Origin: Chthoniobacteraceae bacterium
Lineage (GTDB): Bacteria > Verrucomicrobiota > Verrucomicrobiia > Chthoniobacterales > Chthoniobacteraceae
Reading direction: 5' to 3'
Length of the DNA stretch: 35,105 nucleotides
Assembly (NCBI GenBank): GCA_031409335.1
Contig: JANNWY010000055.1
Span: 1-35,105, forward strand
The notes beneath the pieces were generated by a model. That model made no database searches. It saw only the letters and a list, made by a program, of their open reading frames with translations, and was not told where the DNA came from. The position numbers were made by a program, and so were the translations under genes. How positions within the stretch are numbered: the first letter of the stretch is position 1; each line of letters starts with the position of its first letter. Below, one piece after another: positions 8,301-32,900 of this stretch.

Positions 8301-9956
8301 TCACTGTCGGCGCAGGACGGTAAAGTGCCGGTAGGCCTCGTCGGTATTTGGAAAATCCAGCGTGTAGTGCAGGCCGCGGCTTTCGTGGCGCAGCAAGGCG
8401 CTATCCACGATCAGGGCGGCGACGCAGGCGAGATTGCGCAGTTCGAGGAGGTCGGTGGTGATTTTGTAGCCCCAGTAAAACTCCTGGATTTCGCGATCGA
8501 GATTCCGCAGCCGCGTAGCGGCGCGCTGGAGGCGTTTGGTGGTGCGCACGATGCCGACGTAGTCCCACATCAGGCGGCGGATTTCGTCCCAGTTGTGGTA
8601 GATCACGACGAGTTCATCGACATCGACCGCGCTGCCACTGACCCACGCGGGGAGGGGGAGAAGGTCGAAGGTCGAGGGTCGAAGGTCGAGGGCGGGGGAA
8701 CTCTGGCCGTCGGCCTTTGGCCTTCGACCTTCGTCTTCCGCCACAATGGCTTCGCAGCAGCGATGCGCGAGGACGCTGGCTTCGAGGAGGGAATTGCTGG
8801 CGAGCCGGTTGGCGCCGTGGAGGCCGGTGCAGGCGACTTCGCCGATGGCGTGGAGGCCGGCCAAAGTCGATGCACCGGTTTCGTCGGTGAGCACGCCGCC
8901 GCATTGATAGTGCGCGGCGGGGACGACTGGGATCGGCTGTTTGGTGATGTCGATGCCGAGCGCGAGGCAGGTGTCGTGGATGTGCGGAAACCGTTCGCGA
9001 ATGAAGTCGGCGGGCTTGTGGGTGATGTCGAGATAGACGCACTTCGAGCCGGTGCGTTTCATCTCGGCGTCGATCGCGCGGGCGACGATGTCGCGCGGCG
9101 CGAGCGCACCGCGTTCGTCGTATTTTGCCATGAACTCGCCACCCTTCACATCGAGCAGGCGCGCACCTTCGCCGCGAATCGCCTCCGAAATCAGGAAGCT
9201 GCGGGCGTCTTTGTGAAATAGGCAGGTCGGGTGGAATTGGATGAATTCCATGTTGGCGATTTTCGCGCCCGCGCGCCACGCGATCGCCACGCCGTCGCCC
9301 GTCGCGATGCTCGGATTGGTCGTGTAGAGATACACTTTTCCGCAACCGCCGGTGGCGAGAATGATGCGGTCGCTGCGCAGCGTTTTGACGACGCCGGTCG
9401 CTTCATCAAGGACGTAAACGCCGAGGACGCGGTCTTCGCTGACGTAGCCGAGTTTGGCGAGAGTGATGAGGTCCACGGCAATGTGGTTTTCAAAAACGTC
9501 GATGTTGGCGCTGCGCTCGATCGCGGCGAGCAGGGCGCGCTCGATCTCGCGGCCGGTCACATCGCGCGCATGGAGGATGCGGCGTTTGCTGTGGCCGCCC
9601 TCGCGGCCGAGGTCGAGTTCGTGACCGCCGTTCGGCAGTTCGCGTTCGTCGAAATTGACCCCGAAGTCGATGAGTTCGCGGATGCGCGCCGGTCCGTCGC
9701 TGACGATCGAGCGCACCACTTTTTCATCACACAAACCCGCCCCGGCATCGAGCGTGTCGGCGACGTGCAACTCGAAGGAATCCTCCGAACTGGTGACGCT
9801 GGCGATGCCGCCCTGCGCCCACGCGGTGTTGGATTCGCCACGTTTGCCTTTGGTGATGATGGCGACGCGGCCATGGGACGAGATGTTCAACGCGAAGCTG
9901 AGCCCGGCGATGCCACTGCCGATGACGATGAAATCGTAGTGCTTTATCTGAGACAT
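8301..9956 (-). CDS. nadB: L-aspartate oxidase
   Basis: MSQIKHYDFIVIGSGIAGL, SNTAWAQGGIA, REGGHSKRRILHA, MEFIQFHPT, LISEAIRGEGA, GLHGANRLASNSLLE, RHESRGLHY. The true start is ATG 9956, overlapping the end of panC; the ORF track over-extends it to 10439. Confidence 0.96.
   Translation of the reverse strand: MSQIKHYDFIVIGSGIAGLSFALNISSHGRVAIITKGKRGESNTAWAQGGIASVTSSEDSFELHVADTLDAGAGLCDEKVVRSIVSDGPARIRELIDFGVNFDERELPNGGHELDLGREGGHSKRRILHARDVTGREIERALLAAIERSANIDVFENHIAVDLITLAKLGYVSEDRVLGVYVLDEATGVVKTLRSDRIILATGGCGKVYLYTTNPSIATGDGVAIAWRAGAKIANMEFIQFHPTCLFHKDARSFLISEAIRGEGARLLDVKGGEFMAKYDERGALAPRDIVARAIDAEMKRTGSKCVYLDITHKPADFIRERFPHIHDTCLALGIDITKQPIPVVPAAHYQCGGVLTDETGASTLAGLHAIGEVACTGLHGANRLASNSLLEASVLAHRCCEAIVAEDEGRRPKADGQSSPALDLRPSTFDLLPLPAWVSGSAVDVDELVVIYHNWDEIRRLMWDYVGIVRTTKRLQRAATRLRNLDREIQEFYWGYKITTDLLELRNLACVAALIVDSALLRHESRGLHYTLDFPNTDEAYRHFTVLRRQ
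8660..8738. repeat. Heptamer-unit palindrome in frame within nadB
   Basis: GAAGGTC GAAGGTC GAGGGTC GAAGGTC GAGGGC (8660-8693) faces GGCCGTC GGCCTTT GGCCTTC GACCTTC GTCTTC (8705-8738). Confidence 0.85.
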
Positions 9957-26863: not shown

Positions 26864-28494
26864 CGCGCGCACATTTCACCACCCTCGCCGGTGGCGCGCT
26901 GGCGCTCGGGATCGGTGCCGTCGCCGCGAAGATGAGCGAGCCCGCGCCCGCCATCGTGCCACCGCTGGTCGAGCCCGCGAAGTCGGCGATGCCCGTGCCC
27001 GCGCGCGGCCGGACGGTCAGCGAATCGTTCGCCGCGGCGCTGCAAAAAGAGACTGGCGGGAAACGCTGGCTGCTGCTGCTCGCCGCGACTGAGAAGGCCG
27101 ATGCGTCCGACATGCCGGGGCTGATCCGCGCGGTCGGCGTGGATTCCGCCGCCGTCCGCATGCTCGCCGCGCACTGGGCCGATCTCGATCCGAGCCACAT
27201 GTTTCACACCGTCTATGCCGAGCTGCTTTTGCCGGAAAATACCCCCGGCGCATTGCCGAGCCGCTACACCCTGTCGAGCGTGCTTTTCGAGCAGTGGGTG
27301 AAGAACGACCCCGCTGCCGCGGTGAAGGCGCTCAACGATGTGCCGGAATTTTCGGGCCGCGAAAATCTGCGTATGACGGCCTCGAACCAGCTCATGAAAG
27401 CCGATGTCGAAACCGGGCTGCGCGCGATGAAGGATTGGGGCATCCGCAATTACTCCCCCGACATGAAAGGCGTGGCGGCGTGGGCCGCGCGCGATCCGCA
27501 GCGCGCGGCGGAAAGCATTTTGAAAAACACCGAGGGCTACGCGCGGCAGGCGGCGCTGAGGGAGGTGGCGAAAGTATGGGGAAACGCCAATCCCAGTGCC
27601 GCGTTCGAATTCGCCGCCGGGCTCGATTCCACGAGCCGCGCGCAGGTCAGCGGGGAAGTCATCCGCGCATGGGCCGAGCGCGATGCGGCGGGTGCGGCGG
27701 CATTTGCCGCGACGCAGCCGGAAGGCGCATTTCGCAACGCGCTCGGCCAGAGTCTTGTCACCGAGTGGGGGAAAACGGATGCGGCTGCGGCGCTCGCGTG
27801 GAGCCAGGGAAATCTGCGCGGCTCGGCGCAGACCGAGGCCATCTCCGGGCTCGTAAAATCCGCCGCGGAAAAAGATCTTGCCGGAGCCGCCCAACTCGTC
27901 GCGACGATGGAACCCGGCACGGCGCAGAACCGCGCGAGCACGGCGATTTTTGAAACGTGGTTTAACAAAGGCAAAGGCGAACGCGCCGCCGCGATCGAAT
28001 GGCTCGCCGCGCTGCCCGATGCCACGGTGCGCAAGGCGGCGATCGAGCGCGTGCAATGGAACTGGGCGTGGAACGATCCCGCTGGCGTGCGCGATTTCAT
28101 CTCCGGCCCGAATGGCGCGCTCGCGTCGCATTCCCTCATCCAGCAAGTCGCCCGCGGCCAGGTGTCCAAAAATCCCGAAGCCGCCATGCAATGGGCCACC
28201 AGCCTGCCCGCCGATCGCGCCGCCGAAGCGCGCGCCGCCGTGCTGGAAAACTGGCTCTCGATCCGCCCAGAAGGTGCCGCCGACTACGTCAGAAAACTCC
28301 CGGTCGGCGAGGAGCGCAGCCGCGCGGTTTCCAGCGTTTCTCAATCGCTCATCTACCAATCCCCGCAGCAGGCCGCCGCGTGGTACCGCACGCTCGGCGA
28401 TGCCGAACGCAAAGTGGCGCGCGAAGTTTTCGACCGCAGCGGCCTTCCGGAGGATCAGCGGAAGCAGTTGGAAGACGGCTTGAAGGCACCGTGA
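26860..28494 (+). CDS. Second membrane-anchored alpha-helical repeat protein (paralog, ATGA-coupled)
   Basis: Same repeat type (WVKNDPAAAVKA, WAARDPQRAA, WAERDAAGAAAF, WGKTDAAAALAW). Its start overlaps the previous stop codon. Confidence 0.85.
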   Translation: MTRAHFTTLAGGALALGIGAVAAKMSEPAPAIVPPLVEPAKSAMPVPARGRTVSESFAAALQKETGGKRWLLLLAATEKADASDMPGLIRAVGVDSAAVRMLAAHWADLDPSHMFHTVYAELLLPENTPGALPSRYTLSSVLFEQWVKNDPAAAVKALNDVPEFSGRENLRMTASNQLMKADVETGLRAMKDWGIRNYSPDMKGVAAWAARDPQRAAESILKNTEGYARQAALREVAKVWGNANPSAAFEFAAGLDSTSRAQVSGEVIRAWAERDAAGAAAFAATQPEGAFRNALGQSLVTEWGKTDAAAALAWSQGNLRGSAQTEAISGLVKSAAEKDLAGAAQLVATMEPGTAQNRASTAIFETWFNKGKGERAAAIEWLAALPDATVRKAAIERVQWNWAWNDPAGVRDFISGPNGALASHSLIQQVARGQVSKNPEAAMQWATSLPADRAAEARAAVLENWLSIRPEGAADYVRKLPVGEERSRAVSSVSQSLIYQSPQQAAAWYRTLGDAERKVAREVFDRSGLPEDQRKQLEDGLKAP

Positions 28495-28524
28495 TCCGCG
28501 CAGGGGGCGATTTGACCTGAAAAA

Positions 28525-28715
28525 GGCGATGGAATTACCGCGGAAGACGCCGATGACGCGGAAAACACGGAAAAGCAGCGGTTTGGGCCGCAACCCGAAA
28601 CAGACCCCGTCTCACCAAATGGGTGAATGCGACCAAGCCCGCTGCCTGCCCTCGAAGTCTCTCCCAATCCGCGTTTTCCGCGTAATCTGCGTCCGCTGCG
28701 GCAATCTCCATCGCC
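28525..28715. repeat. ~190-bp palindromic (MITE-like) element with arms made of 9-bp units
   Basis: Left arm GGCGATGGA-ATTACCGCGGAAGACGCCGATGACGCGGAAAACACGGAA; right arm ATCCGCGTTTTCCGCGTAATCTGCGTCCGCTGCGGCAAT-C-TCCATCGCC. By hand, 31/39 positions match in the core, plus a 9-bp perfect outer stem. Confidence 0.85.
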
Positions 28716-28773
28716 GCTTTTAGGTGTGAAAATGGCCGCGCCCGCGAAGCATCCGCAGCCAAAGCCCATGCGG

Positions 28774-29196
28774 CCTAGACTGCAATGCTGCCAAAATTTG
28801 CAATTCCCAAGTGTTTGAAACTGCAATGAGGCCGGAATTTGTAATTCCCAAGCGTTTGAAGCTGTAATACAGCCGGAATTCATAATTTTCGAGCGTTTGA
28901 GACTGTATTACGGCCAAAATTTGTAATTCCACCTCACTTCCGTACGTAACACGCCCGGAATGGACAATTCTGAGAGAGTTACAGCTGTAATTATCGCGCC
29001 TGAGAGGCGGATGGCCTTTTTACAACTGTAACAGGCCCGGCATTCATAATTTTCGCCCCTTTACAGTCGCAACCGGTCTTTCACCCACAATTCTGGCAGT
29101 AATATAGTCTAAAACGGACGGTTTTTGACAGCGTTGCACGCAGTGTGATTTCCCGACCTTCAAAATCGTGGCGAAAACCCGTTTTGCAGCACAAAG
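28774..29196. repeat. Degenerate non-coding tandem array with a 41-bp period (8-9 clear units, phase traceable to about 10)
   Basis: CTGYAA-like boxes start at 28780, 28821, 28862, 28903, 28944, 28985, 29026, 29067, 29108 and 29190, all exact multiples of 41 apart. Unit 2 is AAACTGCAATGAGGCCGGAATTTGTAATTCCCAAGCGTTTG. Confidence 0.9.
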
Positions 29197-29252
29197 GGCG
29201 GGAGCGATGCCAATGCGGACAGGTGCGGCACGTCATCACCATCCATTCCGCC

Positions 29253-29280
29253 CTTCATGTCCGCCGTGTCCTTCGTGGTT
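29253..29280. repeat. Orphan 9-mer-unit palindrome arm
   Basis: CTTCATGTC CGCCGTGTC CTTCGTGGT T, the same style as the right arm of the 28525-28715 element. Confidence 0.6.
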
Positions 29281-29631
29281 CAATCCGAATCCGCAGGCTT
29301 TTCCACGAGATGCAAAACAGTGAAAAATGGGTGTTGACATCCAAAGAGGGGTAATCAAATCAAAGATCGCGTTTGCAGCGTTGGCGGTATTTCCACCCAT
29401 GAATGACCTTCCCCCAAAAAAGCGGCCCCGCGTCAAAGCCACGATGGACGTGGCTTCCGAAAGCCGCGACGAGCTGCATCCGCTGGTCACGCGCCGCTGC
29501 TCACATCCCGCGCGCCGGTCCACGCTCTGCGCAAATGGAAACCGTAACCGGCTCCGCACATCCAGTTTCATTCCACGAATGCGCACCCTCCGGCCAGCGC
29601 ACAAAAAACCCTCGAAAACCGATTGAATCCC

Positions 29632-29907
29632 ATGAATCTGACCGGCCTGTTTCGTTGCGTTGCATTGGTTTCAGCCATCCTGCTCGGATCGCAGGCCCGT
29701 GGCCAGTCCAGCTACACCATGTATTACCAAAGCGGGCCGCCGCCGACGACGCAGGCGAGCAGCAGTTCGATGGGTTTTGAGGTGCCGATCGAGCGAACGG
29801 GGCACAGCTTTTCCTTTTGCTGGCGCATCGTCGCCAGTGGCAGCGCCAGCAACAGTAGCACCTACCCCGCGCGTTTTGTGACTTCATCAGACCCCCTCAC
29901 TCCCTGA
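29632..29907 (+). pseudogene. Probable truncated secreted-protein gene (or a short secreted protein)
   Basis: Signal peptide MNLTGLFRCVALVSAILLGSQARG, then a beta-rich segment (FEVPIERTG...FCWRIVASGSA) reminiscent of a Calx-beta/Ig domain start. It stops at 91 aa, 61 bp before the STAND gene. Confidence 0.5.
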
Positions 29908-29968
29908 CGCCGATCCCCGCTCTGACCGTCCCCGGTGCGGCGGGCGCGAAAGCAATTTTCTAGCAGTC

Positions 29969-32900
29969 ATGCCTGATAACAAAAAACTCTTCCTCTCCAT
30001 CGTCAGCAACGAGTTCGTGTCGTATCGCCAGCTTCTCGCGTCGGACTTGAAGCGCCCGAACCTGGATGTCGCCGCGCAGGAGGATTTCATCAACACCGGC
30101 GGCTCCACCTTGGAGAAGCTGGACGACTACATCCGCAGTTGCCATGGGGTCATCCACATCATCGGCAAGGCCACCGGGGCCGTGCCGCCGGAGGCAGCGG
30201 TGAAGGCTTTGCTCGCCCGTAATTCCGACTTCGCCGCCAAGCTCCCGCCGCTCGCACCGCACCTCGCGCAGCCGCAGCCCGGCTTTTCCTACACGCAGTG
30301 GGAAGCCTACCTCGCCCTTTACCATCAGCGGCCACTCTTCGTTTATCGCCCCACCGACTTCGATCTGGCGCTGCATCAGGTGCCGCGCGGGCCAAAGTTC
30401 GTTTTCAGCGCCGACGAGGAAAAGTCCCAACGCGAGCATTGCCGCCGCATCTGCGATCTCGGCCACGACCGCAGCCAATTCCTCAACGAAGAGCGCCTCA
30501 GCTCCGCCGTGCTCCGCGACCTCGTGGAGATCCTGCCCCGGCTGGAGACGACCATCAACGTCTCCGCCACCAAGCTCGGCCACACCGCCGAGCGACTCAT
30601 CGGGCGCGACGAAGACCTCGCCCGACTCGATGCCGCCTGGAACGACTCGCACAAAAACGTCGTCATCGTCCGCGCGTTTGGCGGCATGGGGAAGACTTCC
30701 CTCGTCGCCACCTGGATGGCCGAGCTGGCGCTGAAAAACTGGCGTGGCGCCGGGCGCGTCTTCGATTGGTCCTTCTACAGCCAGGGCACCAACGACCAGC
30801 GCGCCGCTTCCGCCGACACCTTCATCGCCGCCGCGCTCACAGCCTTTGGCGATCCCGATCCCGTGCTCGGCTCCGCGTGGGATCGCGGCGCGCGGCTCGC
30901 CCGGCTGGTGGGAAAAGAGCGCTGCCTGCTCGTGCTCGATGGCCTGGAGCCGCTTCAATATCCGCCCGGCCCGATGGAGGGAAAGCTCAAGGACCAGGCC
31001 ATCGAAGCCCTGCTCAAAGGACTCGCCGCCCAGAACGCCGGGCTGTGCGTCGTCACCACGCGTGAAAGAGTCCCCGACATCCAGCAGCACTACGGACGCA
31101 CCGCCGCCGACCTCGCGCTCACCGCGCTCACCGACCTCGCCGGTGCGGCCCTGCTGCATCACCACGGAGCCACGCGCGCCGGAGCCGTGGAGATCAAACG
31201 CGACGACCGGGAACTGCAAACCGCCAGCCGCGAAGTGCGCGGCCACGGCCTCACCCTGCGATTGCTCGGGCAGTATCTGCGGCTCGTGGAAGGCGGCGAC
31301 ATCCTCAAGCGCGGCACCGTGCGCCTGGCCGATGCCGAGCGCGAATACCAGAACGACGCCACCCGCCCCTACGGCCACGCCTTCAAAGCCATGGAAGCCT
31401 ACGAGCAATGGTTCCAGCGCGAGGGCGAGCGCGGCCAGCGCCAGCTCGCCGTCCTGCGCCTGCTCGGCCTCTTCGACCGTCCCGCCTCCAAGGATTGCCT
31501 CGACGCCCTGCTCAAAGCGCCCGCCATCGCCGGGCTGACCGAGCTGCTCGTCGGGTTGGCACCACGCGATTGGAATCTCATCACGAACCGGCTGGCGGAA
31601 ATCAATCTCGTCACCGTGCAGGCCGACGGCGGGCTGGATGCGCATCCGCTGCTGCGGGAATACTTCGCGATGAAACTCCGCGAGCAGCCCGAGAGCTGGA
31701 AGGCCGCGCACAAGCGGCTCTACGAACACCTCTGCGCGAAGACGAAGGACAAGCCCGACGCCACCCTCGAAGACCTCCAACCGCTCTACCAAGTCGTGGC
31801 CCACGGCTGCCAGGCGGGCTTGCAGCAGGAGGCGTGTGAAAAGGTTTACTTCGCCCGCATCCAGTGCGGGCAGAAATCCTACAGCGCGAAGAAACTCGGT
31901 GCGTTCGGTTCGGACTTGGGAGCCATCGCGTGCTTCTTCGAGCAACCTTGGAGCTGCATCTCACCTGCGCTCAGTGAATTCTGGCAAGCTTGGCTGCTTA
32001 ACGAAGCCGCCTTCCGCCTGCGCGCCTTGGGCCGGCTGACCGAGGCCCTCGAGCCGATGCGGGCTGGGCTGGAGAAGCTCATCACGCAAAAGAATTGGAA
32101 GGCTGCAGCAGGAATGGCCAGCAACCTGAGCGAGCTGGAGCTGACGCTGGGCGAGGTGGCCGGCGCGGTGGGGGACGCCGAGCAGTCCGTGACCTACGCC
32201 AACCGCAGCGGCGATGCGGACATGCGGTATGCGATGCGCGAGACATCAGCCGACGCCCTGCACCAGGCGGGCCGCCGGGCCGAGGCGGAGGCGCGCTTCC
32301 GCGAGGCCGAGCAGACGCAGGCCGAGCGCCAGCCCGCCTACCCGCTGCTGTATTCGACGGGGGGCTTCCGGTATTGCGACCTGCTCTTGACGGAGGCGGA
32401 GCGGGCCAGTGGGAATGTCGAAGGAAGAATGGCGAATGACGAATTCGTGAAGCACTGCCGCGCCGTCTCCGAGCGAGCGGCGCAGACGCTCAAGTGGGAG
32501 GAGGGAATGCGCGGCGCACCGATTCTCGACTTCGCGCTTCACCACCTCACCCTGGGCCGCGCCGCGCTCTACGAAGCCATTCTCGGGAAATTCGACATTC
32601 GCAATTCGTCACTCGAAATTGACCACGCCGTCTCCGGCCTCCGCCGCGCCGGCCAGAGCGATGAGCTTCCCAAAGCCCTCCTCACCCGCGCCTGGCAGTG
32701 GAATCTCACCGGCGTGCGGACCGGCCCCGAGAGCGCGCAGAGCGACCTGGACGAAGCCTGGGAAATCGCCGCCCGCGGGCCGATGCCGCTTTTTCTCGCA
32801 GACATCCATCTCTATCGCGCCCGCCTCTTCTTCCGCGAAGCCCATTATCCTTTCACCGATCCCGACGGCACGCCGCGCACCCCCCAGCAGGACCTTGCGG

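Follow-up and report, generated by a model that had tools for sequence, protein, structure and literature searches.

A 41-bp repeat array in a Chthoniobacteraceae genome, probably the orphaned upstream module of a helical-bundle and FN3 gene family

The sopC centromere of the F plasmid, which works together with SopB, is built from twelve head-to-tail units of 43 bp (about four helical turns), often with one inverted repeat in each, and its cognate gene adjoins it. Sigma-54 promoters, according to PMC3844500, carry GG at -24 and TGC at -12 and depend on an activator that binds some 80-150 bp upstream. In Porphyromonas gingivalis, PMC2575886 and PMC4596501 describe MITEPgRS/MITE464 as dispersed non-coding elements with 41-nt tandem repeats in variable unit number, MITEPgRS also having ISPg1-type terminal inverted repeats and A/B flanking repeats. 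TIGR-Tas arrays, as presented in PMC12045711, consist of 5-15 units of 36 nt, with two alternating repeat types and short linkers.

The array analysed here (Table 1) lies in a window of 35,105 nucleotides, contig C55 of a 7.9-Mb genome that is 98% complete. Its period of 41 bp without indels, reported in a first-pass annotation of the sequence, was borne out by TRF (period 41 at 28779-28930, indels 0%) and by a lag-41 identity of 0.575 across 28774-29101, a value reached by none of 300 dinucleotide shuffles when the best lag between 30 and 55 was taken for each (maximum 0.342). The same annotation had counted about 10 units, which is too many, since 29102-29224 is aperiodic (lag-41 identity 0.22) and eight units were found. 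Its perfect dyads A (28979-28990) and B (28834-28848) are present and all 15 of its linkers match the sequence, but dyads do not characterize every unit as it had claimed: symmetry is uneven (0-6 of 6 pairs in A, 1-6 of 6 in B), and u5 has no B dyad. Box B looks like a pair of AATT words at a distance of 7 bp. The most similar units are the promoter-distal ones, and the units are, as previously noted, lower in GC than their surroundings (0.39-0.51 against 0.54-0.73 in four left-flank blocks). Contigs from two metagenome runs cover the array unchanged, which is not independent support because these runs are possibly the source. No open frame runs through the array, and a coding relic was rejected on that ground. 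No Rfam family matched the array at gathering score (three chance-level matches fell far below it), and a sigma-70 scan returned one site, the number expected by chance.

Table 1. Parts of the array and of the adjoining DNA, in window coordinates.
Feature	Position	Strand	Length or pattern	Basis or remark
Array, units u0-u7	28774..29101	+	eight 41-bp units	TRF, lag identity, homologues
Box A, one per unit			12 bp, TTR-N6-YAA	element-specific, homogenised inside an element
Box B, one per unit			RAATT-N3-AATTY	in u5 swapped for the family-conserved CCTGAGAGGC segment
Linkers between boxes A and B			7 bp each	position-specific
Non-repeating spacer, last unit to promoter box	29102..29133	+		equal length in gene-linked G129 and C120
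Decayed sigma-54-type -24/-12 box	29134..29149	+		sits where gene-linked copies have intact boxes
Non-repeating tail	29150..29225	+		common to second orphan copy on contig C87; no gene behind

Searched with a sequence-only model, the 151 family genomes yielded 13 distinct elements, spread over 9 genomes; the window's own genome contributes three (C55, C87 and C177). A sequence-only model built from the alignment of the window, C87 and G001 matched G129 at an E-value of 5.6e-5. An alignment of the window with C87 is free of gaps throughout its 287 columns, and the two are 79% alike over 29048-29225. This preservation of the period across nearly gap-free homologues favours selection on spacing, as first proposed. 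When seven elements were compared (small samples of related sequences), linkers and box B were 0.45-0.50 alike at equal unit number and 0.30-0.33 elsewhere, and linkers alone 0.45-0.48 at equal units versus 0.30-0.31 at other units. The linkers, which do differ along the array as described, are thus passed on by unit position and are not acquired spacers; at equal unit positions they are conserved among homologues, and the earlier verdict that the array is not a CRISPR holds. The separation from TIGR arrays was likewise confirmed, inasmuch as period, box C/D and Nop gene all fail. The window shares with TIGR-Tas arrays two alternating repeat types connected by short linkers, but has a period of 41 instead of 36 nt, inherited linkers and no box C/D words in phase (TGATGA 0, CTGA 2, at different phases), and no Nop domain was detected among the 28 window ORFs or, with PF01798, in the genome (0 matches; this model may miss divergent Tas proteins). 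Box A similarity was highest inside one element (0.61 versus 0.50 and 0.44), and by these alignments box A is the part that switches identity and becomes homogenised. It differs among C55, C87 and C120 although they share one genome, and G129 bears the box A word of the window, whose perfect form (at most one mismatch) has no other occurrence in the own genome. A recurrence of box A inside the coding sequence of some partner gene or at other promoters was also considered and found no support in the own-genome search.

The metagenome array L079 and the family array G129 directly precede the gene of an unnamed protein of ~350 aa, here called the partner. The own genome has five copies of this gene: at C120 a 41-bp array ends at a clean sigma-54-type box, and at C190 a 42-bp array is likewise accompanied by a box. 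The fifth copy (G000:C150:17730-18416) is 5'-truncated by a sequence that we take to be transposase-like. Partner proteins measure ~305-350 aa, with an FN3 domain C-terminal to a long helical bundle; the structure model (pLDDT 86.5) places long helices at 10-207, followed by the predicted FN3 domain, for which the best fold match had Z 13.8 and rmsd 1.8 over 90 aligned residues. Fold searches with the partner returned only FN3 and generic helix bundles, with no catalytic fold, and the helical domain is not basic (net charge +5 to -12). An Atlas search led to unnamed Verrucomicrobiota clusters, and at E<=1e-30 the family took in 947 cluster representatives, a set that includes some unrelated multi-FN3 proteins. 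As in sopC, the gene-linked copies consist of head-to-tail units of about four turns, in many cases with one inverted repeat per unit, beside a cognate gene; they differ from it in being chromosomal, in the presence of several unrelated arrays per genome, in fast sequence turnover and in a partner without ParB resemblance (0 of 23 proteins matched ParB families). Neither ParA nor ParB was matched among the 28 window ORFs.

A second protein family appeared beside similar arrays. Scanning metagenomes for three B dyads spaced by 41 bp returned 47 loci, many of which are heptamer or AT-rich repeats; 22 were hand-picked by eye and 40 of their 125 ORFs scanned, among which three neighbours were DUF6261, the B dyad adjoining the gene upstream at L037 and L055 and downstream at L040. 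At this last locus (L040:3211-4144) the whole array lies downstream, not upstream, of the DUF6261 gene, and at L059:3858-4545 a 41-bp array of heptamer-like words stands directly 5' of a 23S_rRNA_IVP four-helix-bundle gene. The partner proteins gave no DUF6261 Pfam match, and alignment of the two profiles by hhalign yielded an E-value of 0.041 and a probability of 1.3% over 161 collinear columns (reversed control, E 0.31; shallow test, E 0.29). Profiles alone leave homology unproven, but the predicted helices of both proteins coincide within a few residues, making it likely, and the partner is probably, on these models, a distant counterpart of DUF6261. The arrays linked to the two families agree in period, upstream position, B dyad and helix layout of the protein; they differ in that the partner adds FN3 and lacks the DUF6261 Pfam match, in the sigma-54 box, and in the orphan state of the window copy.

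The partner gene is present in 35 of 151 family genomes and, in the class-level search, in 11 of 201. Among the family-level loci (30 returned, 28 analysed, two fragments excluded), the best upstream period was 41 or 42 at 19 of 24, two of these 19 being near-identical, after four further loci had been dropped from the upstream count (one because its 5' end was disrupted, three because their upstream DNA measured 0-325 nt); a best period of 41 or 42 was found downstream at none of the 28. In four other families an array preceded the gene at 16 of 18 loci and followed it at none of 20 (20 loci, two dropped upstream; one 14-bp repeat scored negative). Combined, 35 of 42 assessable partner genes have an upstream array and none a downstream one, the genes without array numbering 5 of 24 at family level and 2 of 18 outside it. 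The sequence of these arrays is far less constant than their spacing: similarity of at least 0.6 was reached by only 4 of 18 pairs at 70-81% protein identity, whereas of the 43 protein pairs with >=50% identity 42 agreed in period, versus 198 of 467 pairs below 40% (non-independent pairs, kin included). As read from these sequences, unit length (41 or 42) follows the protein clade, whereas the arrays themselves are in many cases unrelated in sequence. A large number of related arrays consist of nearly identical repeats (scores up to 0.95), and palindromes are enriched yet not required, since a clear dyad (p<=0.05) was found in 11 of 37 unit consensuses. The array class is real and non-neutral. 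The three-B-dyad pattern was absent from 400 other genomes of the phylum, a sample taken outside the window's family; viral contigs gave 0 matches to three patterns, and a strict pattern run over GTDB returned the two G001 copies and nothing else.

In the clade closest to the window, the arrays are coupled to a promoter-type box. A -24/-12 motif was found 5' of all eight close-clade genes with intact upstream DNA (one with the variant TTGCAC) and of C190, against 227 of 52542 random 300-nt windows, and the own genome encodes rpoN and 11 strong-scoring sigma-54 activator domains. The motif was not found at the own-genome loci C272 (375 nt available) and C16 (190 nt), at any of 18 distant family-level loci or at any of 24 non-own loci of the wider set, and sigma-54 coupling is therefore lineage-specific; at four of the eight close-clade genes the box stands without an array. 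Over the 250 nt before the box, the window has an ungapped identity of 0.42 with the G129 array and 0.416 with that of C120, in both cases with a best offset of 0 (background 0.248 +/- 0.027; 0 of 20000 random windows as high), and on sequence grounds we are confident that the window array is the same element as the gene-linked ones. With respect to the box, five of nine elements are in register at 0 or one unit and three are displaced by one helical turn (-10, +11, +10), with three of the nine boxes chosen by a loose pattern; G027, one of the nine, is out of phase. The earlier reading of a phased protein-binding array is favoured by this apparent helical phase between array and promoter box. 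The last A boxes have their centres some 93 and 134 bp upstream of the inferred start, within the activator range of sigma-54 promoters, which suggests an enhancer. In the window itself the box reads TG for GG and TGA for TGC, so that both invariant elements are lost, whereas gene-linked homologues have GG/TGC; the window copy is likely to be inactive as a promoter. The system resembles sigma-54 promoters with upstream activator sequences, as PMC3844500 presents them, in the GG/TGC box, the palindromic sites 80-150 bp upstream and the fixed helical phase, and departs from that description in that its sites number six to nine, follow a strict 41-bp array and vary in sequence between copies inside one genome. 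It also differs in that most partner-family members have an array without a sigma-54 box, and in that the window box is decayed.

Our preferred reading, held with somewhat better than even confidence, is that the array forms a helically phased DNA docking platform, which would serve as a sigma-54 enhancer in this lineage and is orphaned here; that it acts at the DNA level as a platform has marginally more in its favour. In the proposed cassette, the 41/42-bp array would be an upstream DNA module followed by the promoter and the helical-bundle and FN3 gene. Units of 41-42 bp, close to four helical turns, would bring the sites onto one face of the duplex, where aligned sites could support cooperative protein loading, and the platform would control the adjoining promoter, providing in the sigma-54 lineage the enhancer that such a promoter requires. 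The putative reader would rely more on spacing than on any single sequence, and no candidate for it emerged from the sequences, the box A word being unique in the genome and the partner's helical domain not basic. Fixed spacing combined with a sequence whose replacement outpaces the divergence of the neighbouring protein makes this an unusual cis element and points to geometry-based DNA recognition. Sigma-54 promoters are silent without an upstream-bound activator, which renders the function of the array testable in that lineage, and the array offers an entry point to a large family of proteins that is still uncharacterised.

In the window copy the gene would have been lost and the -24/-12 box would have decayed, so that transcription is probably no longer driven. 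A six-frame HMM search of 28400-30200 and of the whole window found no partner-gene remnant; the tail behind the box is probably the old leader, and the window copy is probably a stranded control module, a leftover. The association with an NLR-like locus, assumed at first, was not sustained: the start of the NACHT gene is about 870 bp distant, close homologues share no neighbour seen in a comparison of their ORF lists, and the NACHT gene is no part of the element. Orphans are frequent and well preserved, contrary to what decay alone would lead one to expect.

This abundance of orphans would be explained by live non-autonomous elements, either MITE/REP-like or docking or titration sites acting in trans, served by a family protein encoded elsewhere, an explanation that we consider unlikely. 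The 13 elements of the window's lineage comprise ten orphans (10 of 11 assessable), two that are cut off by a contig edge and a single one with the gene, a count biased by a search seeded with orphans. Two G001 copies are 99% identical yet have different left flanks, although both reach contig ends, possibly once with the gene; an alignment of the two G130 copies spans 296 columns and contains one gap, homology stopping exactly at TGGCACGCA. Four of five high-GC metagenome arrays are orphans, three of which keep a box-like motif, and the fifth has the gene. The homogenisation of box A inside elements fits such mobility, but its dissimilarity between C55, C87 and C120 does not, the own genome has only three orphan copies in 7.9 Mb, and neither terminal inverted repeats nor target duplications were seen at element ends (inspected by eye; several copies are cut by contig ends). 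By the descriptions in PMC2575886 and PMC4596501, MITEPgRS likewise has 41-nt tandem repeats in dispersed non-coding elements whose unit number varies; its terminal inverted repeats and flanking repeats have no counterpart seen here. At the orphans L017, L022, L021 and L023 similarity is lost within a few bases past the -24 word, the two G130 copies ending exactly at this place, and the window and G029 both go on with a GTGTGA(T/C)TTC-like word after the box. The break at the promoter box could be a recombination or insertion site.

The proposal that transcripts of the array are processed into RNAs of ~41 nt (or ~20 nt), which would bind the helical protein as guides or scaffolds, is quite improbable. 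Folding of the array is more favourable than that of shuffled sequences (z -3.95), as repeated dyads predict anyway. A DUF6261 model gave middling matches, at ranks 14 and 16, to two four-helix bundles of the 23S-rRNA-intervening-sequence type, 2rld (Z 8.2, rmsd 3.3, 94 aligned) and 2gsc (Z 8.0; presumably of this type); both matches are under the tool's noise level for helical bundles. The precursor of ~41-nt RNAs suggested in the first-pass annotation is not supported, given linkers that are inherited and not acquired, many arrays of near-perfect repeats in which nothing could act as a spacer, and a promoter box that in this lineage lies downstream of the array, between it and the gene. To this are added the failure of PF01798 to find a Nop domain in the genome and, for the array, the lack of phased box C/D words and of an Rfam family at gathering score.

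Very improbable in our judgement is that the array is a product and not a site, a cassette-tied fixed-step duplication regenerating 41/42-bp tandem copies of upstream sequence: sequence does turn over fully at a unit length that remains 41 or 42 and goes with the protein clade, no dyad is evident in about half of the arrays, and the window's promoter-distal units are the most similar, but the partner shows no catalytic fold, and whole-unit copying would not homogenise box A while linkers keep their position. A neutral minisatellite unrelated to any gene, to which the decaying, gene-less window copy might seem to conform, is scarcely credible and largely refuted for the family by upstream arrays at 35 of 42 assessable genes, with none downstream, and by nearly gap-free alignment across genera.

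A broader interpretation, offered tentatively and rather doubtful at present, is a cross-phylum system of DUF6261-like helical-bundle proteins and arrays whose information would lie in 41/42-bp geometry and not in sequence; the protein or an associated factor would read or build the four-turn repeats as a ruler, gate a sigma-54 promoter in one lineage and act in trans on orphan arrays. No description of the array class was found in the literature covered (subscription journals and supplements lay outside it), and its combination with an FN3-fused partner, sigma-54 coupling and frequent orphans is apparently undescribed in print; nor was confirmation obtained there for a possible connection of hagB/hagC in P. 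gingivalis with DUF6261 and repeats upstream.

Several further features were recorded in the window. To the left of the array, 28515-28725 forms a long hairpin (z -7.4) belonging to a dispersed family with matches at E<=0.001 on at least 23 other contigs; among 12 other elements, two (L003 and L017) have a member of this family directly next to the array. Directly 5' of the NACHT start codon, 29888-29966 is a short multi-copy element with eight further matches in the genome and a summed depth of about 290 in two metagenomes, where its flanks are unrelated. It also occurs near a gene end in L002, the gene there being presumably integron-integrase-like, and is possibly an attC-like cassette site, canonical boxes not being evident. 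A small cassette-like ORF at 29632-29907 (+), with a signal-peptide-like start and no Pfam match, ends inside this element. Finally, heptamer repeats run at 8660-8733 and 32413-32620, the latter inside the NACHT ORF, where they give rise to two odd inserts in its C-terminal part.
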